IMG/VR virus record: IMGVR_UViG_3300007643_000017
Location: 1 to 60,821 of that record
Length of the DNA stretch: 60,821 nt
Strand: one strand, 5' to 3'
Source: a virus
Part shown: piece after piece, positions 1 through 60,821 of the stretch
Layout of the letters: each line of letters begins with the position of its first letter
Position numbering within the stretch: position 1 is the stretch's first letter
Program-made: the position numbers and the translations under genes
Notes under the pieces: model-generated
The model's input: the letters and a program-made list of their open reading frames with translations, nothing else
Told to the model about the DNA's origin: nothing
Databases searched by the model: none

Positions 1-99
1 GCCCGAGCTATTCGGCGGCGACAAGAAGGAAGGCGGTCCGCGTGGTGTCATGGAATACTACGCCGGGAACCTCAATCAGGTTATGTCGGAAGAGATCGC
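1..99. repeat. Terminal overlap, copy 1 (identical to 60723-60821). Either a circular-assembly overlap or a short terminal redundancy.
   Basis: Read directly: gcccgagctattcggcgg...gaagagatcgc is both the first and the last 99 nt. One ORF is continuous across the join. Confidence 0.95.
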
Positions 100-3000
100 C
101 GCCCGTGTCGGCCTGACCAGCGCCACCATGCCCGGATACCGAGGCATCGCTAACATCATGTTCAGGGGCTCCGGCGTTGGTGAAATCACCTACACCGATC
201 CGACTGCAACGCTTTCTGCCGGGATAGCGCTCGGCTCTTTCGCAGGCGCAGTTTTGGCGAGTCAAAACATCAACAGCAATTCCGGTGCGGCGGGAGGATT
301 CAAGTGGTCCACCAACAACCCGTTTCTTCCCGGGACGTGGGTCAACGTCACGCGCATGCCCAAGGGACTCAATGCGTCGTTCGCTGCGATATCTAACCCG
401 CAGTTGGACGAAGAGGGCGTTGCCAGCTTCGGTGACGACGCGAACCCGGCTCACATCATTTACGAGTGCATGACCAACACAGACTGGGGTATGGGCGATA
501 GCTCCGCCAGTATCGACATTCCGTCTTTCGAAGAGGCGGCTGAGGCACTTCACGGCGAAGGCTTCGGCCTGTCGTTGCAATGGGTGAAACCATCCACCAT
601 CGAATCATTCGTGCAAGAAATTCTCGATCACATTCAGGGCACCGTCTACCAAAACCCGTCCACGGGGAAGATGACCCTCAAGCTGTATCGTGATGACTAC
701 CAAGCCGTGCTGGCTTCGCTCCCGATCCTCGACGACACCAACTCTAAAGTGAACAGGTTCTCCCGAAAAAGTTGGGGTGAGACAGTCAACGAGATCGTTG
801 TGTCTTGGACCAACCCGGCGAACGAACAAGAAGAGACTGTGACATATCATGACCTATCCAATATCTCGATTCAAAACGGGGCCATCGTATCCGACACAAG
901 AAACTATTACGGCGTCCGAAATTCGGACCTTGCCATTCGACTTGCTGTCCGGGATGCGCGTACCGCGTCCGCCCCATTGGCCAGCGCCGAAATCACCGTG
1001 GACAGACGTTCGTTCAACCTCTTCCCGGGTGGCGTAGTCAAAGTCGTTTCTGAAAAAGACGACATCGCGGAGATCGTGATGCGGATCAACGACATCGACT
1101 ACGGTAAGCCGAAAGACTCCAAGATCAGACTGAACCTGACCGAGGACATCTTCTCGTTGGAGCAGGCTGAGTTTGTAACGCCGCCGTCATCTCTCTGGGA
1201 AGACACGGACGCTGACCCGGAGATTCTGGACTTCATTGAAATCATGACAGCCCCTCGCGGCATTCTTTCGCTGGCTGGTCTGGCACCGGCCCCGGAAGAC
1301 GACGACGCCCGGTATCCGCAAACCATCCCCATGTTGCTCGGCCAGACCGATCAGCCGGACACGGAGTCTTTCGACCTGTATGCACCATCAGTTTTGCCGA
1401 ACGGCGACACTGCGATCTTCTCACGAGGCGAGTTCCAACTGACCGGGCGGGCTGTTCTCGGGAACATCCTTGCGAAGGAAGCCATCTCGACAATCCCCAA
1501 TACGGATTTCCAACAGTTCCAAGGCGACTACGGGCCGGACCTCGGCTTCATGGCGCTTATCGGAACTGGCGAAGCCGATCACGAATTGATCTTGTTCAAC
1601 AGCTACGACTCTGGTGCTGGCGAATGGACTGTCGGTCGGGGCATCCTCGATACCGTGATGAAAGAGTGGCCTGCGTCTACGCCGGTCTGGTTCATCAACG
1701 CTGCGCTGAACACGTTCGACACAGCAGAAATTTCAGTCGGAGAGACTGTTCCATACCAGCTTCGTACAAAGACGACTCGCGGGCTCTTGCCGTTGGCATC
1801 GACGCCGATCACGAACTACCTCGGTACGGATCGTCCGTACCAGCCGTCTCGGCCTGCGAACGTGGAGACCAACGGAGTGTCGCTCGACGACGTAGTCCAA
1901 GTGTCCACTACCGACACCGTGGTGACGTGGGCGAACCGGAACCGGATCAACGAAGATACGATCATCAAAGCATGGGCTGACGGCAACGTGACTCCTGAAA
2001 CAGGTCAGACCGCCACGGTCCGGGTGCGTAAGCAATCTGACGATGCGCTTATCACTGAATACACCGGCTTGACTGCGTTGACACACAACATCCCGCACGT
2101 TGATTACGCCGGTACGACCGACGCGTATATCGAAGTGTTGGCTGAGAGAGACGGCTTTGAGTCGCTGCAATTCATTCGACAAAACATCATGGTTCCGCCG
2201 TTGGTGGTTGTCATCACACCGCACAGGTACTGGCGCGTCCTGATCGACGACAACGCTGCGACGAGTGGAGCGGACGAGTATTCGACGATCTCCGAAGTCT
2301 TCTTCCGTGATGTCGGGCTGAACGACGCCACTACAGTTCATGGCGGCACAGCAAGCGCTTCATCAGAGTTCAGCGGGACGTATGTTGCAGCCAATGCGTT
2401 CGACCGGGTTGATTCCACAGATTGGTCTTCGGTCGTCAACACAGTTCCCGGCTCTTGGATTCAATGGGACTTCGGCGCAGCAAACGATCAGGCGATCTAC
2501 TGCGTTGACATCCGGTCTTCGAACAGCGGTGCGTCTCAAGACGAGGCCCCGACAGACTTCCATCTTGAGTGGTCGGACGATGGCGTTGCTTGGACCAGCG
2601 TCCTCGATATTTCCGGGGCGACTTGGTCTACGGCACAGACCCAACACTGGTTTGCTTCGTCCCCGGTGTCAGTCTTCCGAGCCGCGTTCGACAATAGCTT
2701 CGCTGATCTGTCGCCGTCAGCCCATCCGCTTTCCGGTTCAACCGGCGTGACCTTCACCACAGACTCGAAGTTCGGGACACACGCGCTCGAGTCCACCAAC
2801 ACCATCTCTGCCGCTCGGTACGGGGATAGCGACGATTGGAATTTCGGTAGCGGTGATTTCACAATCGAGTTCTGGTTCAAGAGCAATAGCGCCGCGCAGA
2901 ATGCTGCTTGGATGGTCACTCATTGGGATACGTCAGCCGGTCAACGGTCATGGGGCGTATGGATCAACACTCCGGGAGACCTGTCGTTCTTCACATCGAC

Positions 3001-3313
3001 AACCGGCGCGAACTTCACACAGTACGACTCAACCTTCGCCTTGCCTGCGGACATCGTGAACTATCAGTTCGTTGTCGTGCAGCGTTCCGGCAACACTCTG
3101 AACTTCTGGGTGGACGGCAATTTGGTATTCACCGACGCCGCGTTCACCGACGTTCTGTTCGACTCCAATGCGGATCTGGCTATCGGAGCGAGAGACGGCG
3201 CGGTCATGGCTGGTGTAGACGGTAAACTTGACGATGTGCGGATCACGAAACGAGCCCGGTATGTCCCAAGCGCGGCCATTATTGACGTTCCGACCGGGCC
3301 GTTCACCTCTTGA
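2..3313 (+). CDS. Central tail fibre / host-specificity protein, lambda gpJ-like (C-terminal 1104 codons; N-terminus at 60544-60722 across the junction)
   Basis: The ORF is open to nt 2 and, via the 99-nt overlap, in frame with the ATG at 60544. The N-terminal region (ICHGPLDAI, LFGGDKKEGGPRG) resembles gpJ/Phage-tail_3 proteins. The C-terminus has discoidin-like (YWRVLIDD...WIQWDFG) and LamG-like (FTIEFWFK...LNFWVDGNL) segments. Confidence 0.85.
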   Translation, partial: PELFGGDKKEGGPRGVMEYYAGNLNQVMSEEIAARVGLTSATMPGYRGIANIMFRGSGVGEITYTDPTATLSAGIALGSFAGAVLASQNINSNSGAAGGFKWSTNNPFLPGTWVNVTRMPKGLNASFAAISNPQLDEEGVASFGDDANPAHIIYECMTNTDWGMGDSSASIDIPSFEEAAEALHGEGFGLSLQWVKPSTIESFVQEILDHIQGTVYQNPSTGKMTLKLYRDDYQAVLASLPILDDTNSKVNRFSRKSWGETVNEIVVSWTNPANEQEETVTYHDLSNISIQNGAIVSDTRNYYGVRNSDLAIRLAVRDARTASAPLASAEITVDRRSFNLFPGGVVKVVSEKDDIAEIVMRINDIDYGKPKDSKIRLNLTEDIFSLEQAEFVTPPSSLWEDTDADPEILDFIEIMTAPRGILSLAGLAPAPEDDDARYPQTIPMLLGQTDQPDTESFDLYAPSVLPNGDTAIFSRGEFQLTGRAVLGNILAKEAISTIPNTDFQQFQGDYGPDLGFMALIGTGEADHELILFNSYDSGAGEWTVGRGILDTVMKEWPASTPVWFINAALNTFDTAEISVGETVPYQLRTKTTRGLLPLASTPITNYLGTDRPYQPSRPANVETNGVSLDDVVQVSTTDTVVTWANRNRINEDTIIKAWADGNVTPETGQTATVRVRKQSDDALITEYTGLTALTHNIPHVDYAGTTDAYIEVLAERDGFESLQFIRQNIMVPPLVVVITPHRYWRVLIDDNAATSGADEYSTISEVFFRDVGLNDATTVHGGTASASSEFSGTYVAANAFDRVDSTDWSSVVNTVPGSWIQWDFGAANDQAIYCVDIRSSNSGASQDEAPTDFHLEWSDDGVAWTSVLDISGATWSTAQTQHWFASSPVSVFRAAFDNSFADLSPSAHPLSGSTGVTFTTDSKFGTHALESTNTISAARYGDSDDWNFGSGDFTIEFWFKSNSAAQNAAWMVTHWDTSAGQRSWGVWINTPGDLSFFTSTTGANFTQYDSTFALPADIVNYQFVVVQRSGNTLNFWVDGNLVFTDAAFTDVLFDSNADLAIGARDGAVMAGVDGKLDDVRITKRARYVPSAAIIDVPTGPFTS

Positions 3314-6710: not shown

Positions 6711-7439
6711 TCAGATAATGTCGTCGTGTGACGCGATCACGTCGTCGAAGCCCATGCGAATCTGGGCAGCCCGATAATACTTCGGGTCCATCTCTATGCC
6801 TATGAATTTGCGCCCACAGGCCTGTGCAGCTACTCCGGTGGCCCCTGAACCCATGAAGAGGTCAAGAACCGTCTCACCGGGCTCTGTGCTGTTCTCTATG
6901 TACGTTTGCATCAAAGATACCGGCTTCTCAGTCGGGTGGCTCTTTGGGCTCTTCGGATTGTTGTGATCCATGGGGAAGTCAAACTCTTCCGCTGTCTTGA
7001 ATCCTGCGTCGTTCAGAGCGAACGCTTTCCCTTTCCGGGCGAGCAGCGTGTACTCGACGTTCTTCATACCCCAACGGTTCGGTGTGGCGTTGTTCTTCTT
7101 CCAGACGAGCAGATTGTGAAGCTCGAAGCCTGCGGCCATAACCTTCGCCATGAGGCCGTTCTTGAGGCCGAGGAAGTTCGTCATCATGTAGACGTGTGCC
7201 TGCTCTCTGAGGACGCGATGAAGCTCCGGCAGGTACGTTTCCGGCTGTATGGTGTTGTGGGTGATCCCCATGGACGTGTCGTTCGACTCAAGGACGCCTG
7301 TCGGCCTGCGAGCGTCGTCCGGTGTGCCACCGCCAATTGTCTTGTATGGCGGGTCGAAGACGGCTGTGTCGATGCAACCATCCTCGAACAGGGCCATAAC
7401 TTTCATACAGTCGCCGAGATAGAGATTCGTGCCGGTCAT
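6711..7439 (-). CDS. DNA methyltransferase, beta-class N6-adenine/N4-cytosine (N6_N4_Mtase family)
   Basis: Motif IV is FDPPYKT near the N-terminus. HPTEKP and motif I (LDLFMGSGATGVAA) follow, which is the beta-class order. The protein ends ...SHDDII. Confidence 0.9.
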   Translation of the reverse strand: MTGTNLYLGDCMKVMALFEDGCIDTAVFDPPYKTIGGGTPDDARRPTGVLESNDTSMGITHNTIQPETYLPELHRVLREQAHVYMMTNFLGLKNGLMAKVMAAGFELHNLLVWKKNNATPNRWGMKNVEYTLLARKGKAFALNDAGFKTAEEFDFPMDHNNPKSPKSHPTEKPVSLMQTYIENSTEPGETVLDLFMGSGATGVAAQACGRKFIGIEMDPKYYRAAQIRMGFDDVIASHDDII

Positions 7440-7726
7440 ATGAGGTCATCCTGAGTGTAATCTGTTGTTGGCGCGGGTTCCCGGTCAGCCACGATCTGAG
7501 CTTCACGCTCGGCTCTGGCTTCCTGATAGACGGCGCACACTTTGGTCTGGTCGCCTTCGAGCGCCAGTGCAAGAGCGACTTCCAATTTCGCAGCCATCCA
7601 ACACTGCCAGCCTGTCGATGCTCTGGTACGAGTGCTGACCTGAAAGCCGTCTTCGGTCACAGCAATGTTCAATGCCGCAATCGTGCCGTCGTCAAGCTGG
7701 TTCTGGATAACGTCGATCAGAGTCAT
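7436..7726 (-). CDS. Hypothetical protein (96 aa)
   Basis: ATGA overlaps at both ends suggest translational coupling. It ends ...TQDDLI. Confidence 0.6.
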
Positions 7727-8079
7727 ATCAGATCGTCCAATTCGTCGTCGTCGATGTCTTTCTCTGGATCGAACTTGCCGCCAGCAGCCTCGTAGATGTC
7801 GGCAGGGTCCATGCCCTGTTCCGGGATGAAGCCGGACGGCAGCATGCCGAGAGCCGACATGTAGAGGTCAAGCATGGCCTCTTGTTCGGTCCGCTCGCTG
7901 GCTTCCACCTTGCGGAGTGAGACAACCTTGCGCAGGGTTTTGGTGTCGAAACCATTGCCCTTCGCCTCGGCATACACTTCCTTGATGTCGTCGGCGATTG
8001 CCTTCTTCTCTTCTTCGAGTCGCTCGATGCGTTCGATTATGGATCGTAGTTGATCGCGGGCTACAGACGTATCGGCCAT
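7723..8079 (-). CDS. gapR: GapR-like (DUF2312) nucleoid-associated DNA-binding protein with a C-terminal acidic extension
   Basis: [44 protein letters not shown]...[10 protein letters not shown] closely parallels Caulobacter GapR. About 40 extra residues end in ...ELDDLI. Confidence 0.9.
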
Positions 8080-8444
8080 CAGATCAGATCGTCGTTGTTG
8101 GCAGCCACGGTCCGAAGAGCCTCAGCTTCGTCTTTCCGGGTAGCCTTCTCTTCATCACTGACGAGATACGTCGGGTCGTATGCCGGTGGGCGCTCGTCTT
8201 CTTCATCTCCGCCAATCAGATCGTCGGGATCACCGAATATCTCAGCACCAGTTCCGGGCTCAACGTCCATAGGGGAACTGCCCCCTGTGCTGGCCATGAG
8301 TTCGTTCAAGAATGGCACCAGTTCTTTGGCGTTCTTGATGTCGAATTTTTCTGTCGCGGTTGGCGGCAGGCTGAGTTCCTTACGACGCTTTTCAGCATCG
8401 CCTTTGAGGTCAAAAAATTCGTTGTTTACTCCGTAGAATATCAT
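8079..8444 (-). CDS. Hypothetical acidic protein (121 aa)
   Basis: Coupled to its neighbours (TGATG). It has an internal DPDDLIGG and a C-terminal ...NNDDLI. Confidence 0.6.
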
Positions 8445-8448
8445 GGTC

Positions 8449-10074
8449 CTATTTCTCCGTGGTAGATAGCTGAGCGTCGTGGCTCAGATACATTGTAGTG
8501 TGGCCGAGAGCTTCCGCCAGAGCCAATTCGGCTCGTGCGCCTTTGCTCTCTGCGAAACCGGGAAGCATTACGATAGCATCAGCCTCGTGGCAAATCCACT
8601 CGCAATCTTCCCCGAGCGCATCGCGCAGACTGAACTCATGATCCTCTGCGGCCTTCGACTCGTCACCGTTGACATTGCCTTTGGAGATGTCCACGCCGTC
8701 GTGGCGTTCGACATCCCGGCGAGCCGGGTTGAATGGATTCCAGCCGCCCAAAATCATCCGCATTTCGGCGGCGTGGAATGCCGGGAAGTTGAACTCTTCG
8801 TAACCGCGCATCGGACCGGCGATATAAACACCGTCGCCTTCGAACTCTCCGGTGTTAGGTGCCAACAGTTTCAGCCACTGGACGTGCAACGGGTCCGTGT
8901 CAGAGTCCCAACCAAGGTCCATGCCTATCGAACTGCTGTCGTAGTGCTGTTCGATCAGTGCTACGCGTTTGGCTTCCAACTGAACGTTGTTGGCCGTGAT
9001 CCCAACCATGCTGCCGGGGTCAACTGCTCGGTACGAGTTCATCAACTGACCGGCCATGTGGAACTGGCCCCGCTCGTCAACGAGGTTGGCGACAACGTGC
9101 ATCACAAGAGACTCGACGTTCCAGATGCCGTCGTCGTTTCCGCAATTGAATTGGCGGGCGAGGCGAAGGAATTTTTTCTTCTGGCTCAGCATCACCGAAT
9201 CGTCAACAAGGAGTTCCCTTACCGACTTCGGCTCTGACGGGCGTTGACCCTTGTTAAACGCGAGGTCACGGACAAAAGAATTGAAGGTCCGCTGTATTCC
9301 TTCCGGCCACTTCTTCAACGTCTCTTGGGCCTTGTCTATCTCCGTCATAGCGTAGAAAACAATCTCTTCGGGGCTTTCGTTGGTCCAGCCGGAGAGAGGA
9401 ACCATGACCTCGTTCGGATGCAGGATCGGTGGGATCGAATCCCCTCGCCCGACATACCCGCCGCTGGCAAATCCCATGTTTGGGAAGAGACCGGACAGCA
9501 GTCCGTCAGTCTTGCCCTCTTGACGAGGCTTGAAGATCATTTCGACAGCTTCGTTGGCCAAGCGTTTCATGATGCGATCTTCGAGCGACGAGAGATCACA
9601 CGCGAAATTCTCTACGTCTGTCTCGCAATACGCACGGAGTTGTTCGTTGACCGGCTCGCCGAGGGCTTCGGCCATAACGTCAGCCGGATTCGATTTGTAG
9701 TCGCGATCCGGTTCGGCACGTCGGTCGTCACCGATGTTCCAATGGACAGAGTGCGAGAGTGCGACGGCGTTCCAGAGAATGTGGTCAGTGTGCATCAAGC
9801 CGCTGCCTTTCTGAATCGTGCCGTCTGGGAGATGCTTGTCGAGATCGCGATCCTCGCCGCGCATATACGCACGGAGATGGCGAAAGAGTGAACCCATGAT
9901 CTGACGTTGGCCCAGACCCTTCGACCAGTTCCACGGAGCGTACTTCTCAGCGCCGTGTTCAGCGACTCGAGCATAGGCTTCCATCATTTCTTCCATCGGA
10001 AGCAGATCGTATGGCAGGTTCGCCATCTTTTCGCGTTGTGCGCCGGTCTCGGATGCGGGATGTTCTTTGGTCAT
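8449..10074 (-). CDS. Three-part fusion: MazG-like dNTP pyrophosphohydrolase N-domain (DUF5664-type), unknown middle region, and DUF4406 (nucleoside 2-deoxyribosyltransferase-like) C-domain
   Basis: N-terminus: LPYDLLPMEEMMEAYARVAEHGAEKYAPWNWSKG...FRHLRAYMRGEDRD...HTDHILWNAVAL. C-terminus: VYIAGPMRGYEEFNFPAFHAAE...CEWICHEADAIVMLPGFAESKGARAELALAEALG. Confidence 0.65.
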   Translation of the reverse strand: MTKEHPASETGAQREKMANLPYDLLPMEEMMEAYARVAEHGAEKYAPWNWSKGLGQRQIMGSLFRHLRAYMRGEDRDLDKHLPDGTIQKGSGLMHTDHILWNAVALSHSVHWNIGDDRRAEPDRDYKSNPADVMAEALGEPVNEQLRAYCETDVENFACDLSSLEDRIMKRLANEAVEMIFKPRQEGKTDGLLSGLFPNMGFASGGYVGRGDSIPPILHPNEVMVPLSGWTNESPEEIVFYAMTEIDKAQETLKKWPEGIQRTFNSFVRDLAFNKGQRPSEPKSVRELLVDDSVMLSQKKKFLRLARQFNCGNDDGIWNVESLVMHVVANLVDERGQFHMAGQLMNSYRAVDPGSMVGITANNVQLEAKRVALIEQHYDSSSIGMDLGWDSDTDPLHVQWLKLLAPNTGEFEGDGVYIAGPMRGYEEFNFPAFHAAEMRMILGGWNPFNPARRDVERHDGVDISKGNVNGDESKAAEDHEFSLRDALGEDCEWICHEADAIVMLPGFAESKGARAELALAEALGHTTMYLSHDAQLSTTEK

Positions 10075-30611: not shown

Positions 30612-32768
30612 ATGCCGCAAGTTTCGGACGTAGTCAGAAGAGCGCAAGAGGAACTGATCGAGAGCCAGACCAAGAGTACGTCCGGCCCGAAGGATCGCTT
30701 GCACCACGACTTTGAAACATTCTCGACCGTCGATCTGACAAAGACCGGAACGGATGTTTACGCACGTCATCCCGACACCGAAATTCTGATGTGCGCCCAT
30801 GCGATAAACGACGACACCCCCGACATATGGGTGCCGGTCGAAGGCGAAGAGATTCCGTCTGAACTGGAAGAAGCGATTGAGGACCCGAACGTCATCAAGT
30901 TCGCTTGGAACAAACCCTTCGAATGGCACATCTGGAAACACGTGTACGGCGTCGAGATTCCACACACGCTCTGGCGCGATCCTATGGTTATGGCCATGAC
31001 GTTGTCGCTCCCCGGCAAGTTGGAAAAGGCCGGTGACATCATCGGCATTGACGAAGACAAGAAAAAGATCAGACGCGGCAAGGCATTGATGCGAAAATTC
31101 TCTATGCCGAGGAAGCCGACAAAAACCCTCAAGCACACGCGAGTTCATTGGCACATGGAGCCCGAGGACTGGGAAGAGTACAAAGAATACTGTATCGGTG
31201 ACGTTGAGGCCGAGAGAGCCGTCTGGAAGAAGATCAGGCGCTACACCATGCCTATGCACGAGTGGTCCTTGTGGGTCCTCGACCAAGTCATCAATCAGAA
31301 CGGCATCCCAATTGATTCCGAGATGGTGGACAACGCCGTCGCGATCTACGAACACATCCGAACAGATCGTATGGCGAGAATGATCCGCCTGACCGGACTC
31401 GAAAATCCCAACTCGAACGTCCAACTTCTGCCGTGGCTCAAAGAGCATGGCTACCCATTTGACGATCTCAAAAAAGGTCACGTAGAGAGAGCCGTCGTCC
31501 GCTGTGACGAAGAGATGACTGAGAACTTCGACGACCCGGCGATCATCTACGAACTGGAAGACCTGAAAGAGGTTTTGGAACTCCGGCTCGAAGCCAATGC
31601 CTCGTCACCGAAGAAGTTCCACTCTCTTCAACGGTCGGTTGCGGAAGACGGCCTGCTCAGGAACTGCTTCCAGTTCGCTGGCGCTCAACGCACTTGGCGT
31701 TGGGCCGGTCGCATGCTGCAACCGCAAAACCTGCCCCGACCGGAGCGAGAGTTCGAAGACGCGATTGAGTTCTATGCGAACATCGTCAAACACCACAGCC
31801 CCGAGAACATCGACTTCATCTTCAATGACCCCATGGGGCTGCTCAAGTCTTGCATCCGACCCGTTGCCCGGGCACCAGAAGGGAAGCTGTTTATCGACGC
31901 CGACTTGAACGCGATTGAGAACCGAGTTCTCGGTTGGATCGCTGACGACCGGAAAATCCTTGAGGTCTTCGAGAAGGGTCAAGACCCGTACATCGCCTTC
32001 GCCCAGTACATGTTCCACCGGACGTATGAAGACCTTTGGCACGACTACAAAGAGAACGGCGACAAGGAAGCCCGAACGACAGCGAAACCCGGCGTGTTGG
32101 GTTGTGGCTACATGCTCGGAGCCGGAGAGGAACGGGTCAACCGGAAGACCGGCGAGATCGAAGCCACCGGCCTGCTCGGCTACGCGTGGAACATGGGGGT
32201 CAAACTGACTCACGATGAGTCGGCCCTGTCAGTGAAAGTTTTCCGAGAGACGTTCTCCGAGGTCAAGGACTTCTGGTACGCTATCGAGAAGGCGATGAAA
32301 AAATGTATCAGGACCGGCAAGAAAGTCGAGTTCCGCATGTTCGAGTTTGACATCAAGGGTCCGTTCTGCCGGATCAGGTTGCCCTCTGGCCGGTACCTGC
32401 ACTACTGCCGTCCGCGCCTCGAAGATAAGAAAACTCCATGGGGCGAGATGCGACCAACAATCACATACGAAGGGCTCAATGCGCAGGGCCAGTGGGTGCG
32501 GATTCAAACGCATCCCGGCAAGATCACTGAGAACGTGGACCAAGCGATCTCTCGCGATCTTCTGGCGCACGGCATGATGCTGGCGCACAAAGAAGGACTC
32601 GACATTCGGCTTCACGTTCACGACCAAATCGTCGGTCTGTCTGACGAGGACCGCGCTGACAAGGAACTGGCGATCTTGCAAGACTGCATGCGCTCAGTTC
32701 CGCTGTGGTGCCCCGGCATGCCTCTTGATTCTGCCGGTTTCACATCCAAAGTCTTTACAAAAGATTGA
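30612..32768 (+). CDS. Family-A DNA polymerase with a 3'-5' exonuclease domain
   Basis: Exo I HHDFETFS. Motif A DADLNAIENRVLG, motif B RTTAKPGVLGCGYMLG, motif C HVHDQIV. The ORF-track 5' extension from 30438 is rejected. Confidence 0.9.
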   Translation: MPQVSDVVRRAQEELIESQTKSTSGPKDRLHHDFETFSTVDLTKTGTDVYARHPDTEILMCAHAINDDTPDIWVPVEGEEIPSELEEAIEDPNVIKFAWNKPFEWHIWKHVYGVEIPHTLWRDPMVMAMTLSLPGKLEKAGDIIGIDEDKKKIRRGKALMRKFSMPRKPTKTLKHTRVHWHMEPEDWEEYKEYCIGDVEAERAVWKKIRRYTMPMHEWSLWVLDQVINQNGIPIDSEMVDNAVAIYEHIRTDRMARMIRLTGLENPNSNVQLLPWLKEHGYPFDDLKKGHVERAVVRCDEEMTENFDDPAIIYELEDLKEVLELRLEANASSPKKFHSLQRSVAEDGLLRNCFQFAGAQRTWRWAGRMLQPQNLPRPEREFEDAIEFYANIVKHHSPENIDFIFNDPMGLLKSCIRPVARAPEGKLFIDADLNAIENRVLGWIADDRKILEVFEKGQDPYIAFAQYMFHRTYEDLWHDYKENGDKEARTTAKPGVLGCGYMLGAGEERVNRKTGEIEATGLLGYAWNMGVKLTHDESALSVKVFRETFSEVKDFWYAIEKAMKKCIRTGKKVEFRMFEFDIKGPFCRIRLPSGRYLHYCRPRLEDKKTPWGEMRPTITYEGLNAQGQWVRIQTHPGKITENVDQAISRDLLAHGMMLAHKEGLDIRLHVHDQIVGLSDEDRADKELAILQDCMRSVPLWCPGMPLDSAGFTSKVFTKD

Positions 32769-32772
32769 ACCG

Positions 32773-33228
32773 ATGACCCACGCACAGAAATTTTTCGAAG
32801 AAGCAAAAGCGTCAACAACGGACGAGTGTATCTTGTGGCCGTATGCCAAAAACCCAAAGGGCTACGGACTGGTCCTGCGAAATGGACGATACAATGCGGC
32901 TTCTCGGCTGATGTTGATTGAAGTCACCGGCGAGGAACCGCAAGGCCACGACGCATGTCACGACCCCGTCGCGTGTAGTCACAGAGACTGTATCAACCCC
33001 CGGCACTTGCGATGGGGAACTCGAAAGGAAAACATGCGAGACAAGGAAATTTCCGGCACGGTTGCCCGAGGCTCCCGCAACGGGAAAACAAATTTCACGG
33101 AAGACGACATTCGAGCAATACGAAAAGACCCCCGAGGTTCAACTGCGGTAGCGAAAGACTACGGTTGCACGAAAGCGGCAATTGGAAATATTGTTGCGAG
33201 AAGAAATTGGGCATGGTTAGGAGATTAG
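32773..33228 (+). CDS. Free-standing HNH homing-type endonuclease
   Basis: ECILWPYAKNPKGYG...ACHDPVACSHRDCINPRHLRWGTRKENMRD is HNH_3-like, with a C-terminal HTH-like tail. Confidence 0.8.
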   Translation: MTHAQKFFEEAKASTTDECILWPYAKNPKGYGLVLRNGRYNAASRLMLIEVTGEEPQGHDACHDPVACSHRDCINPRHLRWGTRKENMRDKEISGTVARGSRNGKTNFTEDDIRAIRKDPRGSTAVAKDYGCTKAAIGNIVARRNWAWLGD

Positions 33229-33507: not shown

Positions 33508-35008
33508 AAAACTTCCGCTGTTCGATCTCGAAAGCCGTGAACTGATCTTCGGCCCGCCAGACGAGATACTGACATATGAGGATTTCGAACCATATCAAAG
33601 ATGGATGTCCAAGCTGTGCATCAATCTCAAGTACGTTTACCTCGGAGCCGACATGGGCCTCGGGAAGACGGCGACTGCGTTGAAGGCAGCCAGCGTCTGG
33701 TTGAAGAAGGGCAAGTGTCGAAAGATTCTGATTATCGCCCCGTTGAATGTTGCGAACCACACTTGGCCTGACGAAATCGCCAAGTGGGACTTTGCACGGC
33801 CAATGAAATACTCAGTCATCACAGGCACCGAAGAACAGCGGCTGTGGGCGCTCAATCGAGATGCCGAGGTCTACATAATCAATCGCGAGAACGTGGTCTG
33901 GCTATACAAGCATCTCAATCCGCACGAGACTCCAGAAGAGTTGGAAAACCCGAACTGGCCGTTCGACGGATTGATCTACGACGAAGCCTCTCGGCTCAAG
34001 GGCGGAGCGAAGAAGACAAAACAGACTGTCAGAAAAGATGGTACTTTATCTGCCAAAAATGTCTCGGAGTTCGGAGCCCTGCGGCGCATACGACCGAAGT
34101 TCAAACGCATCGTGCAGTTGTCGGGGACTCCAGCCCCGAACGGATTGATCGATTTGTGGGGACCGTTCTATTTGCTCGATAAAGGTTCCCGGCTCGGGTC
34201 CTCGAAAGACGCGTTCTTGAAGCGGTGGTTCAGCTACGACAAATGGACCTACAAGTGGGAACCCCACGAGCATGCGAAGAAGGATATTCTCGACCGGCTC
34301 AAAGACATTTTCTTCACGCTCCGGTCTGAGGATTATTTGACGTTGCCGGAATTGAAGATCGTTGATCGGTGGGTTCATCTGACGGAAAAACAAAAACGAC
34401 AATACGACGATTTCAAGGCAGAGATGGTTTTGGAAGAGCATGATATTGAGGCCGTCAACAACGGCGTTCTCTGCAACAAGCTGCTGCAATTCGCCAACGG
34501 ACACGTCTATAACGAAGAACAGGAAGCGATCAAAATCCACGACCAGAAACTGAAAGAGCTTGAGAGCATCGTGGAAGAATCCGCAGGGAAACCGATCCTG
34601 TTGGCGTACTCGTATGCCTTCGACCGAGACGCGATCAAGAAGAAATTTCCATGGGCTCGCATCTTCGGAGAGAAAGAATCTGACATGCGTGATTGGAATG
34701 AGGGCAAGATCAGAATGCTGATTACTCACCCGGCCTCAGCAGGGCACGGCTTGAATTTTCAGTTCGGCAGCAATATAGCTGTTTGGTATGGCCTCAACTG
34801 GAGTCTCGAATTGTACCAACAGTTCATCAAGAGACTCCACCGTCGTGGCCAAAAGGAAGGAACTGTTTTCATGTATCGTATTCTCGCCCGGGGAACATTT
34901 GACGAGCACCAAGTCGAAACGCTCAAACAAAAAGGTGTAACCCAAGACGACATCATTGACGCTGGCACTGCTGAGATCGGAGAGACCCCATGGCCGATAG
35001 CAGCATAG
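33491..35008 (+). CDS. SNF2-family helicase (probable TTG start overlapping the VRR-NUC 3' end)
   Basis: FEPYQ, GADMGLGKT (motif I), YDEASRLK (II), LSGTPAPNG (III), RLHRRGQ (VI). The first ATG lies after the Q motif. The TTG at 33491 has SD gagagg. Confidence 0.8.
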   Translation: MALNRKKLPLFDLESRELIFGPPDEILTYEDFEPYQRWMSKLCINLKYVYLGADMGLGKTATALKAASVWLKKGKCRKILIIAPLNVANHTWPDEIAKWDFARPMKYSVITGTEEQRLWALNRDAEVYIINRENVVWLYKHLNPHETPEELENPNWPFDGLIYDEASRLKGGAKKTKQTVRKDGTLSAKNVSEFGALRRIRPKFKRIVQLSGTPAPNGLIDLWGPFYLLDKGSRLGSSKDAFLKRWFSYDKWTYKWEPHEHAKKDILDRLKDIFFTLRSEDYLTLPELKIVDRWVHLTEKQKRQYDDFKAEMVLEEHDIEAVNNGVLCNKLLQFANGHVYNEEQEAIKIHDQKLKELESIVEESAGKPILLAYSYAFDRDAIKKKFPWARIFGEKESDMRDWNEGKIRMLITHPASAGHGLNFQFGSNIAVWYGLNWSLELYQQFIKRLHRRGQKEGTVFMYRILARGTFDEHQVETLKQKGVTQDDIIDAGTAEIGETPWPIAA

Positions 35009-35637
35009 ACGACGCACTCACTGCCGTAACTGCGGCCAACCGATTTGCCAAAGGTGGCAACGCGGACGCCGGTCGAGTCGTCGAAGGTGTTACCCTGACG
35101 TGGCTCTCCCAAGTGTTCGAAATGACACCTTACGAATTGAAGAAGAAGCTGCGCAATTGCCCGACTAAACCGGCCCGAGACGGTCGCACTGGCGCATACT
35201 ACGATTTGCCAACGGCTGCCGCGTATCTCGTGACACCCCGGATCGACGTTGACGAGTACATGAAAAACGTCAAGCCGACTGACATGCCCGCGCATCTCCA
35301 AGACCAGTATTGGTCAGCGATGAACAAAAAGCAGAAGTGGGAAGAGGCGGCTGGCCACTTGTGGCGCAGCGAAAAAGTTCTCGCCGTCTTTGGTGATGTC
35401 TTCCAGTTGGTCAAGGGATCGATTCAGTTGTGGCCTGACGCGGTCGAACGTGCAGTCGGGATGAACGCCGAACAGAAGCGCACTCTGCGAGCCCAGTGTG
35501 ACGGCCTGCAAAAAGACATCCACACTCGCCTGCTGCAAATGCCTGACGATCAGCACACCGGCCCGCAGCTTGATGAATTTGAAGCGCCGTCCTCAGAGAT
35601 CGGCCCGGAAGCGACAGTTCACGATGACCTTATTTAA
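34990..35637 (+). CDS. Putative small terminase subunit (Nu1/DUF1441-like)
   Basis: It sits immediately upstream of, and overlaps, the large terminase gene. The N-terminus is HTH-like (LTWLSQVFEMTPYELKKKL). Ends ...VHDDLI. Confidence 0.5.
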   Translation: MADSSIDDALTAVTAANRFAKGGNADAGRVVEGVTLTWLSQVFEMTPYELKKKLRNCPTKPARDGRTGAYYDLPTAAAYLVTPRIDVDEYMKNVKPTDMPAHLQDQYWSAMNKKQKWEEAAGHLWRSEKVLAVFGDVFQLVKGSIQLWPDAVERAVGMNAEQKRTLRAQCDGLQKDIHTRLLQMPDDQHTGPQLDEFEAPSSEIGPEATVHDDLI

Positions 35638-38600
35638 CTCTCTCGAACAAATGGTGGTTCAGACTGCCGAGGGGGTTCGTCCCCCCGAACGACTGACCGT
35701 CTCACAGGCCTCGGCCAAGTATCGGTATCTCAATTCTCCCGGAGCGTATGTCGGACCGTGGCTGAATGAGACCACGCCATATCTCGAAGAGCCCATGGAC
35801 TCTCTGAACGATGACGTGAAAACCGGCATGGCTTTCGTCGGACCGGCGCAGTGCGGCAAAGCTCTGGGTCTCGATACGCGTATCCCAACGCCTTCTGGAT
35901 GGACTACGATGGGGGAAATATCCGTTGGAGATTGGCTTATCGGTGGTGACGGCGCACCTTGTCGTGTCACTGGAGTCACCCCCACACAGTACGGCAGAGA
36001 TTGCTATCGAATGGTTTTTGGCAACGGACAAGTGGTTGTGGCCGCCGCGGATCACAACTGGGTAACTAGAGAATACCGATCTACACAAAACCAAAAATGG
36101 ACGGTACAAACGACGCTTGATATCCTCAACAACCGCAATAAACAGAATGTTCCCTGCGGCAAACAAGTCCGACTACCCGAAACCGACTTACCCGTAGACC
36201 CATACGTCTTTGGTGCTTGGTTGGGAGACGGTCACAACGCAGGCGCTCGCATATATACCCACCGGGACGATGCCTCTCAAATGCGAGAGAACTTGCGTAT
36301 GGAGACCCGGTACCACGAGGACAAGAAAGGTCTCGGCGTGATCGCTCTTTCCGACGAGAGACACAACCCCGGTCGTGCGGGCGGGGCACATGGGGTTTCA
36401 GCAGGACTTCGAAGCATGAATTTGTCGCAGGGACAAAACAAATACATACCGACAGTCTACCTCCGATCCAGTGTCGAACAAAGGATGGAGCTTCTGCGCG
36501 GGCTTTTGGATACGGACGGCTCGGCAGATAAAAGGGGCAGGATTGAGTTCACAAGTTCACAGCCGTCGTTGGCCGAGGGATTTGCAGAACTTTTATTATC
36601 TCTCGGATATAGTTTTTCTCGCGGCTCTCGCCAGAAATCCCATCGTTTCAGCTTCTCCCCTAAACGAGACGAAATTCTTTTCAGGCTCCCCAGAAAGCAA
36701 GAACGACTGCATGATTGCGTTCGGAGACCGATTCGGCAAGAACAAACCCCAATCAGCGCCATCGAACCACACGAAAGCGTCCCGGTACGCTGCATAACGG
36801 TAGATTCTCCACAGAGAACGTATTTGTTTGGTGAAAAGTGGGTGGTGACGCACAATACAGACATGTTCTTGAACTGGCTAACGTACACCGTGGTTTCAGA
36901 CCCGGTCGATATGGTTCTGTTCGAGAAGACACAAGCCACGTCTCGCGACTTCTCCATTCGTCGTGTGGACCGGCTGCACGACTTCACAGAAGAGGTCGGC
37001 AATCGGTTGGTGCAGGGTCCTAAGAACGACAATACCTTCGACAAAAAATATACCAACGGGATGCTGTTGACTCTCTCGTGGCCAACGAAAAACACGCTGT
37101 CCGGTAAGCCGGTCCCCCGCCTCTGGCTATCAGATTACGACCGTATGGATCAGGACGTTGAGGGTGACGGGTCGCCGTTCGATCTGGCCCGCAAACGTAT
37201 GACGACATTCCGCCAGTTCGGTATGACCGCCGCAGAGAGTTCTCCATCGTTCCCAATCGAGAACGCTCGGTGGGTCCGCAAGTCCCGGCACGAAGCTCCG
37301 CCAACGCAGGGCATCATTTCGATCTACAACCGAGGCGACCGCCGTCTCTGGTATTGGCGCTGTGTCCAATGTCACAACGCGTTCGAGCCGTCCTTCAAAT
37401 TGATGAAGTGGCCCAAGTCGGAAGACCGGATGGAGTCTGCTGAGGCCGCGTACATCGAATGTCCGTCGTGCAATGCGAAGTACCATCAGGAAGAGCAAGA
37501 CAATCCCGGCAAGCACGAGATGAACCGCGAGCATGCCCGGTGGGTCAAAGACGGGATGATCTGGACGCCGGACAACACGCTGGTCGGCGAGCCGTTCCGG
37601 TCGGACATTTCTTCGTTCTGGCTGAAAGGTCCCGCAGCGACATTCGCAGATTTCAAAACACTGGTGAACAACTATCTGGCAGCCGAAGAAGACTACGAAA
37701 AAACCGGCTCCGAAGACTCTCTCAAAACGACAGTCAACGTCGATCAGGGCGAGCCGTACATCCCGAAAGCGCAAGCCAATGCTCGTCTCCCAGAGATGAT
37801 TAAAGCGACTGCGCGAGACTACGGCCTGCGGATGGTCCCGATGGGTGTCCGGTTCTTGATCGCCACAATCGACTTGCAGAAGAACAGATTTGAAGTACAG
37901 GTCCACGGCGTCGGAACAGATGAACACGGCCTGCCGGATTTTTGGGTTATCGACAGGTTCAAAATCCAAAAGTCTCGCCGGTATGATGACGACGGAGATC
38001 GCGCATGGGTGAACCTCGGAGCGCACCCGGAAGACTGGAAGCAACTGACTGACGAAGTCTTGATGAAAACGTATCCTCTGCTCGACGGTTCCGGCAGGCA
38101 CATGTCGATCAAGCACACGGTATCTGACTCCGCTGGCTCTGAGAACTTTACGTCAAACGCTTATGACTTTGTCCGCTGGCTTCGGCAAGACCCGGAACAC
38201 TGGTCTGAGGATCAAGACGACACGTATGTCTGGAAAGAAGGTCTCGCCGGTCGGTTCAGTCTGCTTCGCGGAGCGTCTACAAAGAACGGTCCTCGAGTCC
38301 GGTTGACGTATCCTGACTCCGAACGCAAAGACCGGAACGCCGGAGCCCGGGGAGAAATCCCGGTCTATGAAATCAATACGCAGAATTTGAAGGACAACAT
38401 CGACAAGATGCTGGACCGTAAAGTTCCCGGGGGCAAGGTCAATTTCCCCGACTGGTTGGACGACAATTTCTTCACGGAATTGACAGTCGAGGTCAAAGAC
38501 CCGGTCAAGGGCTGGCACAACCCAAAGGGATTCCGCAACGAAAGTTGGGACCTTCTCGTCTACGCAAAAGCCGCAACGCTCATGGCCCAAGTCAATGTAG

Positions 38601-38746
38601 ACAACATAAACTGGACCAATCCCCCCGGATGGGCTAAGCCGTGGGACGAAAATGATCTTGTATTTCATCCCGAAATGGATGATAAACCGTTTGAAGCCAA
38701 AAAACCGCGAGCCAATCTGGCGGCACTGGCAGAAAAATTAGCCTGA
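35624..38746 (+). CDS. terL: Large terminase subunit, lambda GpA family, interrupted by an intein
   Basis: The Walker A motif GPAQCGK|T is split by 332 codons. Downstream are GpA-like Cys pairs (CVQCHNAF, CPSCNAKY). It is followed by gpW and lambda-type portal genes. Confidence 0.85.
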   Translation: MTLFNSLEQMVVQTAEGVRPPERLTVSQASAKYRYLNSPGAYVGPWLNETTPYLEEPMDSLNDDVKTGMAFVGPAQCGKALGLDTRIPTPSGWTTMGEISVGDWLIGGDGAPCRVTGVTPTQYGRDCYRMVFGNGQVVVAAADHNWVTREYRSTQNQKWTVQTTLDILNNRNKQNVPCGKQVRLPETDLPVDPYVFGAWLGDGHNAGARIYTHRDDASQMRENLRMETRYHEDKKGLGVIALSDERHNPGRAGGAHGVSAGLRSMNLSQGQNKYIPTVYLRSSVEQRMELLRGLLDTDGSADKRGRIEFTSSQPSLAEGFAELLLSLGYSFSRGSRQKSHRFSFSPKRDEILFRLPRKQERLHDCVRRPIRQEQTPISAIEPHESVPVRCITVDSPQRTYLFGEKWVVTHNTDMFLNWLTYTVVSDPVDMVLFEKTQATSRDFSIRRVDRLHDFTEEVGNRLVQGPKNDNTFDKKYTNGMLLTLSWPTKNTLSGKPVPRLWLSDYDRMDQDVEGDGSPFDLARKRMTTFRQFGMTAAESSPSFPIENARWVRKSRHEAPPTQGIISIYNRGDRRLWYWRCVQCHNAFEPSFKLMKWPKSEDRMESAEAAYIECPSCNAKYHQEEQDNPGKHEMNREHARWVKDGMIWTPDNTLVGEPFRSDISSFWLKGPAATFADFKTLVNNYLAAEEDYEKTGSEDSLKTTVNVDQGEPYIPKAQANARLPEMIKATARDYGLRMVPMGVRFLIATIDLQKNRFEVQVHGVGTDEHGLPDFWVIDRFKIQKSRRYDDDGDRAWVNLGAHPEDWKQLTDEVLMKTYPLLDGSGRHMSIKHTVSDSAGSENFTSNAYDFVRWLRQDPEHWSEDQDDTYVWKEGLAGRFSLLRGASTKNGPRVRLTYPDSERKDRNAGARGEIPVYEINTQNLKDNIDKMLDRKVPGGKVNFPDWLDDNFFTELTVEVKDPVKGWHNPKGFRNESWDLLVYAKAATLMAQVNVDNINWTNPPGWAKPWDENDLVFHPEMDDKPFEAKKPRANLAALAEKLA
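35861..36856 (+). mobile_element. Intein (332 aa) with a LAGLIDADG homing-endonuclease domain; class-3-type signature
   Basis: It starts ALGLDT and ends VVTHN|T. Block B is AADHNW. The two dodecapeptide motifs are FGAWLGDGH and LLRGLLDTDGS. Block F is VRCITVD. Excision restores GPAQCGKT. Confidence 0.85.
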
Positions 38747-43647: not shown

Positions 43648-43675
43648 AGCCGGGGCTTGGTCCCCGGCTTTTTTC
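43648..43675 (+). terminator. Rho-independent terminator after the capsid gene
   Basis: agccgggg-cttggt-ccccggct followed by tttttt. Confidence 0.85.
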
Positions 43676-43722
43676 GAACTCCCCCTGTCTACAAAAAGCC
43701 AACTATTGAAGAGGATTCTCAC

Positions 43723-44274
43723 ATGGCAAAACTCGATCTCATTGCGGTGAACAACATCACCCGCACAATCAAACCCGGCGTTGCAGGCAAAGGCCCGGGC
43801 GACTTCGGCACTCCACCGGAAACAAAAATCATCGCACCGAAGACTCGCTTCGTCGCCGTTGACGAAGACGAATACGATTTCTTGCTCGGTCAGGGTGCTG
43901 CGGTAGTGCCGGTCGATGCTGCTGAAAAAGCCAACATCAGCGAAGAAGACATCGCTGCTGCTGAAAAGGAAGCTGCTGAAAAGGAAGCTGCTGAAAAGCT
44001 GGCTGCCGAAGAAGCTGCCGCTGCCGAAGCCGAAGCTGCGCAAGAAGCTGCTGATGCCGAAGCTGCTGCTACCAAAGAAGCTGCTGAGAAGGAAGCTGCT
44101 GAAAAGGAAGCTGCTGAAAAGGAAGCTGCTGAAAAGGAAGCTGCTGAAAAGGAAGCTGCTGAGAAGGCTGCTGCCAAGGAAGCTGCCGAAGCCGAAGCTG
44201 CTGCCAAAAAAGGCGGCTCGACTCCAGCCAAAAAAGGCGGTAAGACCGAAGAGAAAGAATCTGATTTGGTCTAA
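43723..44274 (+). CDS. Protein with a small N-terminal domain plus a long (EAAEK)n helical repeat; gpFI position
   Basis: SD gaagagga. The (KEAAE) repeats are encoded by 15-bp tandem units. Ends ...EEKESDLV. Confidence 0.65.
   Translation: MAKLDLIAVNNITRTIKPGVAGKGPGDFGTPPETKIIAPKTRFVAVDEDEYDFLLGQGAAVVPVDAAEKANISEEDIAAAEKEAAEKEAAEKLAAEEAAAAEAEAAQEAADAEAAATKEAAEKEAAEKEAAEKEAAEKEAAEKEAAEKAAAKEAAEAEAAAKKGGSTPAKKGGKTEEKESDLV
43954..44215. repeat. Tandem 15-bp repeat GAAGCTGCTGA[AG]AAG: 2 units at 43969-43998, 6 units at 44077-44166, plus degenerate GCT/GAA-rich flanks
   Basis: Read directly. It generates shadow ORFs on both strands. Confidence 0.9.
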
Positions 44275-60551: not shown

Positions 60552-60821
60552 CAAAAAAGGACCACCAGAGGCCCCCGTAGTCGATTATCACATGTCGATC
60601 CACTACGGAATTTGCCACGGCCCTCTCGATGCCATCAACGGAATCACAGTCAAAGAGAAACTGTTGCAGACGGTCAAAAACGCTGGTCCGCTTACCGTGG
60701 ACACGGTGCTGTCGATCAACGCGCCCGAGCTATTCGGCGGCGACAAGAAGGAAGGCGGTCCGCGTGGTGTCATGGAATACTACGCCGGGAACCTCAATCA
60801 GGTTATGTCGGAAGAGATCGC
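60544..60821 (+). CDS. gpJ-like host-specificity protein, N-terminal part (continues at nt 2-3313 through the overlap)
   Basis: MSSKKGPPEAPVVDYHMSIHYGICHGPLDAINGI parallels the lambda gpJ N-terminus (MGKGSSKG...ISEGPIEG). Same frame as 2..3313. Confidence 0.85.
   Translation, partial: MSSKKGPPEAPVVDYHMSIHYGICHGPLDAINGITVKEKLLQTVKNAGPLTVDTVLSINAPELFGGDKKEGGPRGVMEYYAGNLNQVMSEEI
60723..60821. repeat. Terminal overlap, copy 2 (identical to 1-99)
   Basis: Read directly. Confidence 0.95.

Follow-up and report, generated by a model that had tools for sequence, protein, structure and literature searches.

A probable class 3 intein with a LAGLIDADG homing endonuclease domain in the P-loop of a GpA-type phage terminase

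The large terminase gene of the viral record IMGVR_UViG_3300007643_000017 of IMG/VR, whose whole stretch of 60,821 nt (positions 1 to 60,821) is the window analysed here, is interrupted by a 332-residue insert (ALGLDT...VVTHN; 35861-36856, + strand), which is very probably a class 3 intein with a LAGLIDADG homing endonuclease, situated between the Lys and the Thr of the P-loop of a GpA-type terminase. The element is predicted to consist of a HINT splicing domain split by the LAGLIDADG endonuclease domain. Class 3 LAGLIDADG inteins in the ATPase motifs of terminases are already well documented (PMC2807308, PMC5050341), a GpA-type host being less documented. Coordinates are those of the whole 60,821-nt stretch, and intein residues are numbered from Ala1.

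The insert and the alleles that lack it

The translation of 35861-36856 is free of stop codons over 332 residues, runs from ALGLDTRIPT to EKWVVTHN, is followed by Thr and corresponds to codons 80-411 of the open reading frame (ORF). The insert separates Lys79 from the Thr of the Walker A P-loop GPAQCGKT, and its removal in silico joins ...MAFVGPAQCGK to TDMFLNWL.... The protein spliced in this way gives a single unbroken match to the Pfam family GpA_ATPase (residues 42-295, profile positions 3-240, 197 bits); in the precursor the match falls into two stretches totalling 177 bits, broken at about profile position 40, with LAGLIDADG_3 between them.

The relatives surveyed were the 120 best-scoring terminase protein clusters out of a search of 5.8 billion proteins. 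Intein-less proteins of 692-731 residues make up 79 of these clusters and read GK[T/S][D/E] with nothing inserted at the junction, while 41 carry an insert of 143-389 residues at the identical position, between Lys and Thr or Ser; the counts of same-site inteins given below refer to these 41 clusters, the window's own copy included. No intein is present in the closest relative (P0003, 81.5% extein identity), whose contig (L025, ENA ERZ6863533, 59,784 bp) shares synteny with the window. Between the two, the blastn alignment breaks at 35859/36853 of the window against 10236/10234 of L025, so that exactly 996 nt are absent in L025; near the insertion site 67 of 72 nt are identical, and identity over the aligned flanks is 66-71%.

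A shift of the boundaries that would bring Cys or Ser to residue 1 was considered and rejected, as the junctions are fixed by the 79 intein-less alleles and the L025 DNA. Residue 1 of the 41 same-site inteins is Ala in 30, Pro in 8, Ser in 2, Leu in 1 and Cys in none. A tblastn search of the window found no second copy of the intein. Thus, the proposal made in a first-pass annotation of this DNA, that codons 80-411 form an insert whose removal restores the P-loop, agrees with the translation, the Pfam matches, the intein-less alleles and L025; its reading of residue 1 as Ala rather than Cys or Ser stands as well, and the survey of intein-less alleles at the homing site that it had suggested returns an uninterrupted GK[T/S] in 79 of the 120 clusters. 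Taken at the sequence level, the region is an in-frame insertion whose exact removal restores a conserved terminase.

Splicing class, known relatives and the proposed route

The sequence motifs expected of an intein, as well as the two LAGLIDADG motifs that the first-pass annotation had listed, are all present on the + strand of the insert. Block A (ALGLDTRIPTPSG; 35861-35899) begins with Ala, which is not a nucleophile. It is followed by Cys48 (36002-36004), the counterpart by alignment of Cys48 in the DnaBi1 intein of M. smegmatis, and by block B (GQVVVAAADHNWVT; 36026-36067), with His65 (B:10), Trp67 (B:12) and an atypical Ala62 (B:7; codon GCC, 36044-36046). The first LAGLIDADG motif, FGAWLGDGH (36209-36235), includes the putative catalytic Asp123, and the second, LLRGLLDTDGS (36491-36523), the putative catalytic Asp219. 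Block F (PVRCITVDSPQRTYLF; PVRCITVD...; 36782-36829) contains Cys311 (F:4; 36791-36793), the predicted initiating nucleophile, which aligns with Cys320 of the intein of phage Bethlehem and with Cys118 of DnaBi1. Finally, block G, KWVVTHN followed by T (36836-36859), holds Thr330 (G:5), His331, Asn332 and Thr+1, the first C-extein residue, which doubles as the Thr of the P-loop. Residues T6, H65, W67, C311, T330, H331 and N332 are invariant in all 41 same-site inteins, residue +1 is T or S in every one of them and Cys48 is kept in 38; the position of Asp123 is Asp or Glu in the 39 inteins having that region (39/39), and that of Asp219 is Asp in 40 of 40.

Homology to characterised inteins has been found at several levels. 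In a phmmer search against all PDB sequences, the best matches were M. smegmatis DnaBi1 (6bs8, E 2e-27) and the M. chimaera entries 6rix/6riy (about 1e-25), with both halves of the splicing domain aligned (ALALDT...ADAQHQW and SVPVRC...PTHN). Moreover, a tblastn search with the intein against 50,697 GenBank phage records matched 838 of them, the best matches, of up to 39% identity, being large terminases, DnaB helicases and Cas4/RecB nucleases. The intein also matches Pfam LAGLIDADG_3 (E 6e-9). As a separate observation, the intein alone matches PHROG "terminase large subunit" profiles (15, 36964 and 19299; E down to 3e-34); therefore these profiles contain intein sequence and can mislabel inteins in other proteins.

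The AlphaFold2 model of the intein, built from a 25-sequence alignment, reached a predicted local distance difference test (pLDDT) score of 92.7 and a predicted template-modelling (pTM) score of 0.91. In Foldseek, the whole model matched PI-SceI with template-modelling (TM) scores of 0.74-0.76, PI-PfuI being also matched; class 3 DnaB inteins were matched at TM 0.80-0.85 when normalised to target length (0.85 for 6bs8), and I-DmoI matched the endonuclease domain. The model points to a HINT fold, the sequence having splicing blocks A, B, F and G, Asn as its last residue and a nucleophile (Thr) at +1, and to a two-motif LAGLIDADG pseudo-dimer endonuclease of alpha-beta-beta-alpha-beta-beta-alpha fold with an acidic residue in each motif. 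The LAGLIDADG endonuclease domain proposed earlier is thus backed by both the Pfam match and the fold matches to PI-SceI and I-DmoI. Regarding the class, the non-nucleophilic Ala1, the Trp67/Cys311/Thr330 triplet and Thr+1 would place the element in class 3, as the first-pass annotation had done from the triplet; the homology to characterised class 3 inteins, the confident model and the invariance in 41 of 41 relatives argue for the same assignment.

The class 3 prototype, the Bethlehem intein (MP-Be; Tori et al. 2010, PMC2807308), which is the TerL1-c of Kelley et al. 2016 (PMC5050341), resembles the window intein in being a class 3 intein with a LAGLIDADG domain, inside the ATPase domain of a phage large terminase and with a non-nucleophilic residue 1, at 32% identity over 331 residues (tblastn E 1e-47); both its splicing and its endonuclease activity have been demonstrated (PMC2807308, PMC5050341). 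The prototype is 341 residues long, with Gln-1/Pro1, His65, Trp67, Cys320, Thr339, His340, Asn341 and Thr+1, the numbering as located here being that of Tori et al. 2010 (PMC2807308), and its key residues align with His65, Trp67, Cys311, Thr330, His331, Asn332 and Thr+1 of the window. It differs in its host, a Terminase_1-type TerL, in its site c (after ...SQDQ and before P), which is a helix and not the P-loop, in having Pro1 where the window has Ala1 and Ser at B:7 where the window has Ala, and in lacking an equivalent of Cys48. In the Bethlehem genome (AY500153), the prototype intein occupies 7680-8702 within gp11 (7260-9971). This gene matches Pfam TerL_nuclease and has the lysin genes on one side and the portal gene on the other; since the intein also bears the name TerL1-c in Kelley et al. 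2016, the founding class 3 "DnaB" intein is, by sequence and position, located in a terminase and not in a DnaB helicase. The first-pass annotation, which had given the prototype as a mycobacteriophage DnaB intein, was mistaken on this point, the Bethlehem intein being in the terminase large subunit.

Nor is class 3 rare in phages, as had also been claimed: 287 of 784 actinophage inteins belong to it, mostly in terminases and Cas4 nucleases (bioRxiv 10.1101/2025.01.02.630785), in addition to the 838 matching GenBank phage records. Tori et al. 2010 described class 3 inteins in phage large terminases, most of them in ATPase P-loops (PMC2807308), and Kelley et al. 2016 described both P-loop inteins between Lys and Thr (TerL1-a) and class 3 TerL inteins in mycobacteriophages (PMC5050341). 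Like the window intein, TerL1-a lies in a phage large terminase between the Walker A Lys and the nucleophilic Thr; its host, however, belongs to an unrelated terminase family (Terminase_1, not GpA) of actinobacteriophages.

The closest solved structures are those of the DnaB mini-inteins, M. smegmatis DnaBi1 and M. chimaera DnaB-1 (6bs8, 6rix, 6riy), in which the ALALDT start, Cys48, His65, Trp67, the SVPVRC block F and the PTHN end align with the window intein, and which are likewise found in an ATPase P-loop, directly before Ser/Thr. Unlike it, they are bacterial, reside in the replicative helicase, have no endonuclease domain (139-145 residues) and have Ser at +1. As to PI-SceI (S. cerevisiae VMA1; 1vde, 1ef0, 1lws), the best structural match of the whole model, it shares the combination of HINT and LAGLIDADG domains but is a eukaryotic class 1 intein (Cys1, Asp at F:4) with an extra DNA-recognition region and an identity of about 16%.

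Among isolated phages, the nearest counterpart is Acidovorax phage ACF1 (MZ547449, QXV72285.1; record L035, 208-3432), whose GpA-type terminase carries a homologous intein at the same site, with GPARTGK before the insert, PTHN followed by T at its end, the Trp/Cys/Thr triplet and a LAGLIDADG domain; it departs from the window copy in having Cys1, that is, the triplet together with an N-terminal nucleophile. ACF1 is the only GenBank phage record found with both a GpA-type extein and a window-type intein, and a single GenBank phage record reaches a coverage of 80% or more of the precursor. Related P-loop inteins are also present in Vibrio phage 489E54-1, where the host is a Terminase_1-type TerL, and in Rhodobacter phage RcDurkin, whose extein matched no terminase Pfam family. 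Xylella phage Sano and its relatives gave matches spanning the junction; Sano alone was opened, and its TerL, an intein-less protein of 707 residues, was discarded as an intein carrier, the match being an over-extension of the alignment.

We infer that the window intein splices, with Cys311 as the nucleophile. In the route proposed, the 1040-residue precursor would be translated with an inactive ATPase, its P-loop being split; Cys311 (F:4), with His65 and Thr330 activating it and Trp67 packing against it, would attack the Lys79-Ala1 bond to form a branched thioester, and the N-extein would then be transferred to the side chain of Thr+1. Cyclisation of Asn332 would release the intein, and an O-to-N acyl shift would yield a 708-residue terminase with an intact GPAQCGKT. 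Packaging by the terminase would need splicing because the ATPase P-loop is physically split, and the dependence of packaging on splicing proposed in the first-pass annotation is accordingly a sound deduction. In the Bethlehem intein, H65, W67, Cys(F:4), Thr(G:5), the His and Asn of block G and Thr+1 have been mutagenised, the block F Cys being absolutely required (PMC2807308), and in DnaBi1 the change C118A abolished splicing (PMC6195587). These precedents bear on another route, in which Thr+1 would attack the N-terminal junction, as in class 2, or another nucleophile would act, with no thioester at Cys311. Although Ala1 is also a hallmark of class 2 (KlbA-type) inteins, these are without the Trp/Cys/Thr triplet and use Cys+1, while here the triplet is present in 41 of 41 and residue +1 is Thr; with the block F Cys absolutely needed in the nearest homologues (PMC2807308, PMC6195587), such a route is highly improbable.

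Several points weigh against an active class 3 intein with a working endonuclease. The Pfam models of the splicing domain gave no match on the intein, LAGLIDADG_3 being the only one, and the NCBIfam search with precursor and intein returned no significant family; therefore it is the comparisons with PDB and phage sequences that support the homology of the splicing domain. Furthermore, the B:7 position is Ala62 in the window copy and Asp in all the others (40 of the 41 same-site inteins), a change which could slow or impair N-terminal activation, and R7, T69, V103 and T320 also depart from the family consensus. As for the endonuclease, it is the conservation of its motifs that suggests activity. 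In addition, the source contig is a metagenome assembly, and the viability of this exact genome is assumed.

These features would also fit a decaying or inactive intein, with poor splicing caused for instance by the change of Asp62 to Ala, in a contig representing a defective genome; Ala62, the four further off-consensus positions and the metagenomic origin speak in its favour. Nevertheless, His65, Trp67, Cys311, Asn332 and Thr+1, all essential in class 3, are intact and the frame is open over 332 codons; Thr330 is intact too, and in the Bethlehem intein a substitution at this residue made splicing depend on temperature (PMC2807308). The B:7 residue is dispensable in the Bethlehem prototype, where S62A has little effect (PMC2807308), so that Ala62 is judged probably tolerated and possibly rate-modulating. 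Moreover, the genome assembles as a whole, its structural and replication genes being intact and forming a full set, and the 99-bp exact direct terminal repeat (1-99 and 60723-60821) suggests that the window is an entire phage genome of about 60.8 kb, assembled as a circle. A dead terminase, in turn, would be lethal and soon lost. Decay is therefore regarded as very unlikely, only slightly less so than the alternative splicing route, and a functional class 3 intein is preferred.

Mobility and the question of conditional splicing

The distribution of the intein is patchy: it is missing from all 11 of the terminases whose exteins are nearest to those of the window, and for 14 of the 41 intein-bearing proteins the nearest neighbour has no intein. 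A metagenomic GpA terminase of 860 residues (P0089) bears, at the same site between Lys and Thr, a mini-intein of 143 residues without endonuclease, as would be expected of a late stage in the intein life cycle. Composition is atypical as well: the GC content at third codon positions (GC3) is 0.518 in the intein versus 0.661 in the exteins, and lies below that of all 153 background windows (in-frame 996-nt windows from the other genes of the window; mean 0.66, standard deviation 0.05, minimum 0.521). In view of this patchy distribution, the atypical GC3 and the integrity of both LAGLIDADG aspartates, the intein looks like a mobile homing element.

During co-infection, the endonuclease domain would cut intein-less terminase alleles at the sequence coding for the P-loop, and repair of the cut allele would then copy the intein in (homing). 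The conserved coding target of the P-loop is GGNCCNGCNCAGTGCGGCAAR followed directly by ACNGAY, the insertion point lying between the two, and the intein-less form of the window's own site is GGACCNGCGCAGTGCGGCAAR joined to ACAGAYATGTTCTTGAACTGG. In an intein-less allele of the L025 type, the cut would be expected near ...CAGTGCGGCAAR followed by ACAGAY.... For two related terminase inteins, those of Bethlehem and BAKA, both splicing and cleavage of intein-less alleles have been demonstrated (PMC5050341).

A different matter is whether the intein has become an adaptive switch, with splicing gated by redox, zinc or temperature as a checkpoint on terminase maturation and packaging. Such a switch would accord with the class 3 mechanism while giving the phage an added function. 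Both Cys311 and Cys48 are present, the latter in 38 of the 41 same-site inteins. DnaBi1 requires Cys48 in order to splice, and under H2O2 this residue forms with the catalytic Cys118 a reversible disulfide that blocks splicing (PMC6195587); zinc is inhibitory as well (PMC6195587; PMC7360933). Several mutants of the Bethlehem intein, moreover, splice in a temperature-dependent manner (PMC2807308). It is for the DnaB mini-inteins that this redox and zinc sensitivity was shown. Cys48, called non-conserved in the DnaBi1 paper (PMC6195587), is also found in the Vibrio, Nebkiss and ACF1 terminase inteins, though not in the Bethlehem prototype.

On the other hand, most close relatives, including the closest one at 81.5% extein identity, do without the intein, which fits a selfish element; the most conserved motif is the very site that homing endonucleases favour for their own persistence; and the foreign composition points to recent acquisition. 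Cys48, further, may be merely structural, as every Cys48 substitution abolishes DnaBi1 splicing (PMC6195587). An adaptive switch is consequently considered unlikely, and its more specific form, a domesticated checkpoint in which the Cys48-Cys311 pair would act as an oxidant or zinc sensor holding back packaging in a stressed cell, is somewhat less likely still; in the window copy, Asp62Ala could further tune the rate of splicing. The conditional checkpoint suggested in the first-pass annotation is a speculation, with Cys48 as a lead drawn from homology, the default reading of the intein being that of a selfish mobile element.

The host terminase, its phage and the significance of the intein

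The ORF of the large terminase precursor (GpA type; Pfam GpA_ATPase and GpA_nuclease) extends over 35624-38746 (+) and encodes 1040 residues plus the stop codon. Although a mechanical ORF list puts its start at GTG 35498, ATG 35624 is most plausibly the start codon, since the resulting spliced length of 708 residues fits intein-less homologues of 706-720 residues. The N-extein (35624-35860, +; residues 1-79) closes with residues one to seven of the P-loop (GPAQCGK), and the C-extein (36857-38746, +) comprises the remaining ATPase domain, the nuclease domain and the stop codon. In the spliced protein, Pfam GpA_ATPase and GpA_nuclease are matched at E 4e-58 and 3e-56. The gene for the small terminase subunit (34990-35637, +; PHROG 141 E 8e-36, Pfam DUF1441) lies directly upstream, and portal_2, S49 protease and capsid E genes are also near the terminase; a gpW-like gene was seen in the syntenic relative L025. 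Judged by its domains and neighbourhood, the host protein is a GpA-type (lambda-like) large terminase.

The window has a lambda-like packaging and head module (small terminase, GpA terminase, portal_2, S49 protease and capsid E) and a replication module made up of a VapE-like primase/helicase, a DUF2800 nuclease, DNA polymerase A and an SNF2 helicase, and its genome is siphophage-like; no tRNA genes were found in the window. Judged by the terminase, the isolated phages nearest to it are Synechococcus virus S-ESS1, at 60%, and, at 52%, the Ruegeria DSS3-P1 group; none of these carries the intein. A megablast of the terminase gene against GenBank phages gave no match, and there is therefore no close cultured relative; a scan of genome collections found only relatives in metagenome-assembled genomes or prophage-like ones, in Rhodobacterales, Gammaproteobacteria and one Flavobacteriales bin.

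Three other genes of the window deserve mention. A free-standing HNH endonuclease gene (32725-33228, +; PHROG 1872/826 E about 1e-18) of low GC3 (0.512) stands some 2.6 kb upstream of the intein, flanked by the genes for DNA polymerase A and SNF2 helicase; L025 has a DNA methylase in its place, and the HNH gene would appear to be a second mobile homing element. Right after the major capsid gene, an ORF of 205 residues (43657-44274, +) with very low GC3 (0.437) and no PHROG match could be a gene of foreign origin or else a wrongly called frame. Finally, a protein of 1087 residues (50-3313, +) with Phage-tail_3, F5/8 type C and Laminin_G_3 (concanavalin-like) domains is probably a host-recognition tail protein.

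As regards annotation, the ACF1, Vibrio 489E54-1, RcDurkin and Nebkiss records give merely "terminase" or "terminase large subunit"; the gene described here would best be recorded as a terminase precursor plus an intein. Current understanding is not overturned by this element. It extends class 3 P-loop inteins from the Terminase_1 proteins of actinophages and the DnaB of mycobacteria to lambda-like GpA terminases, the new GpA hosts being environmental phages that have Synechococcus S-ESS1 and Ruegeria DSS3-P1 among their relatives and in which such inteins appear to be common (41 of the 120 top clusters). The family-wide conservation of Cys48 makes the conditional splicing of a phage packaging enzyme a concrete and cheaply testable question, and the intein adds one more data point to the view that homing inteins can move from one ATPase to an unrelated one by way of conserved nucleotide-binding loops.

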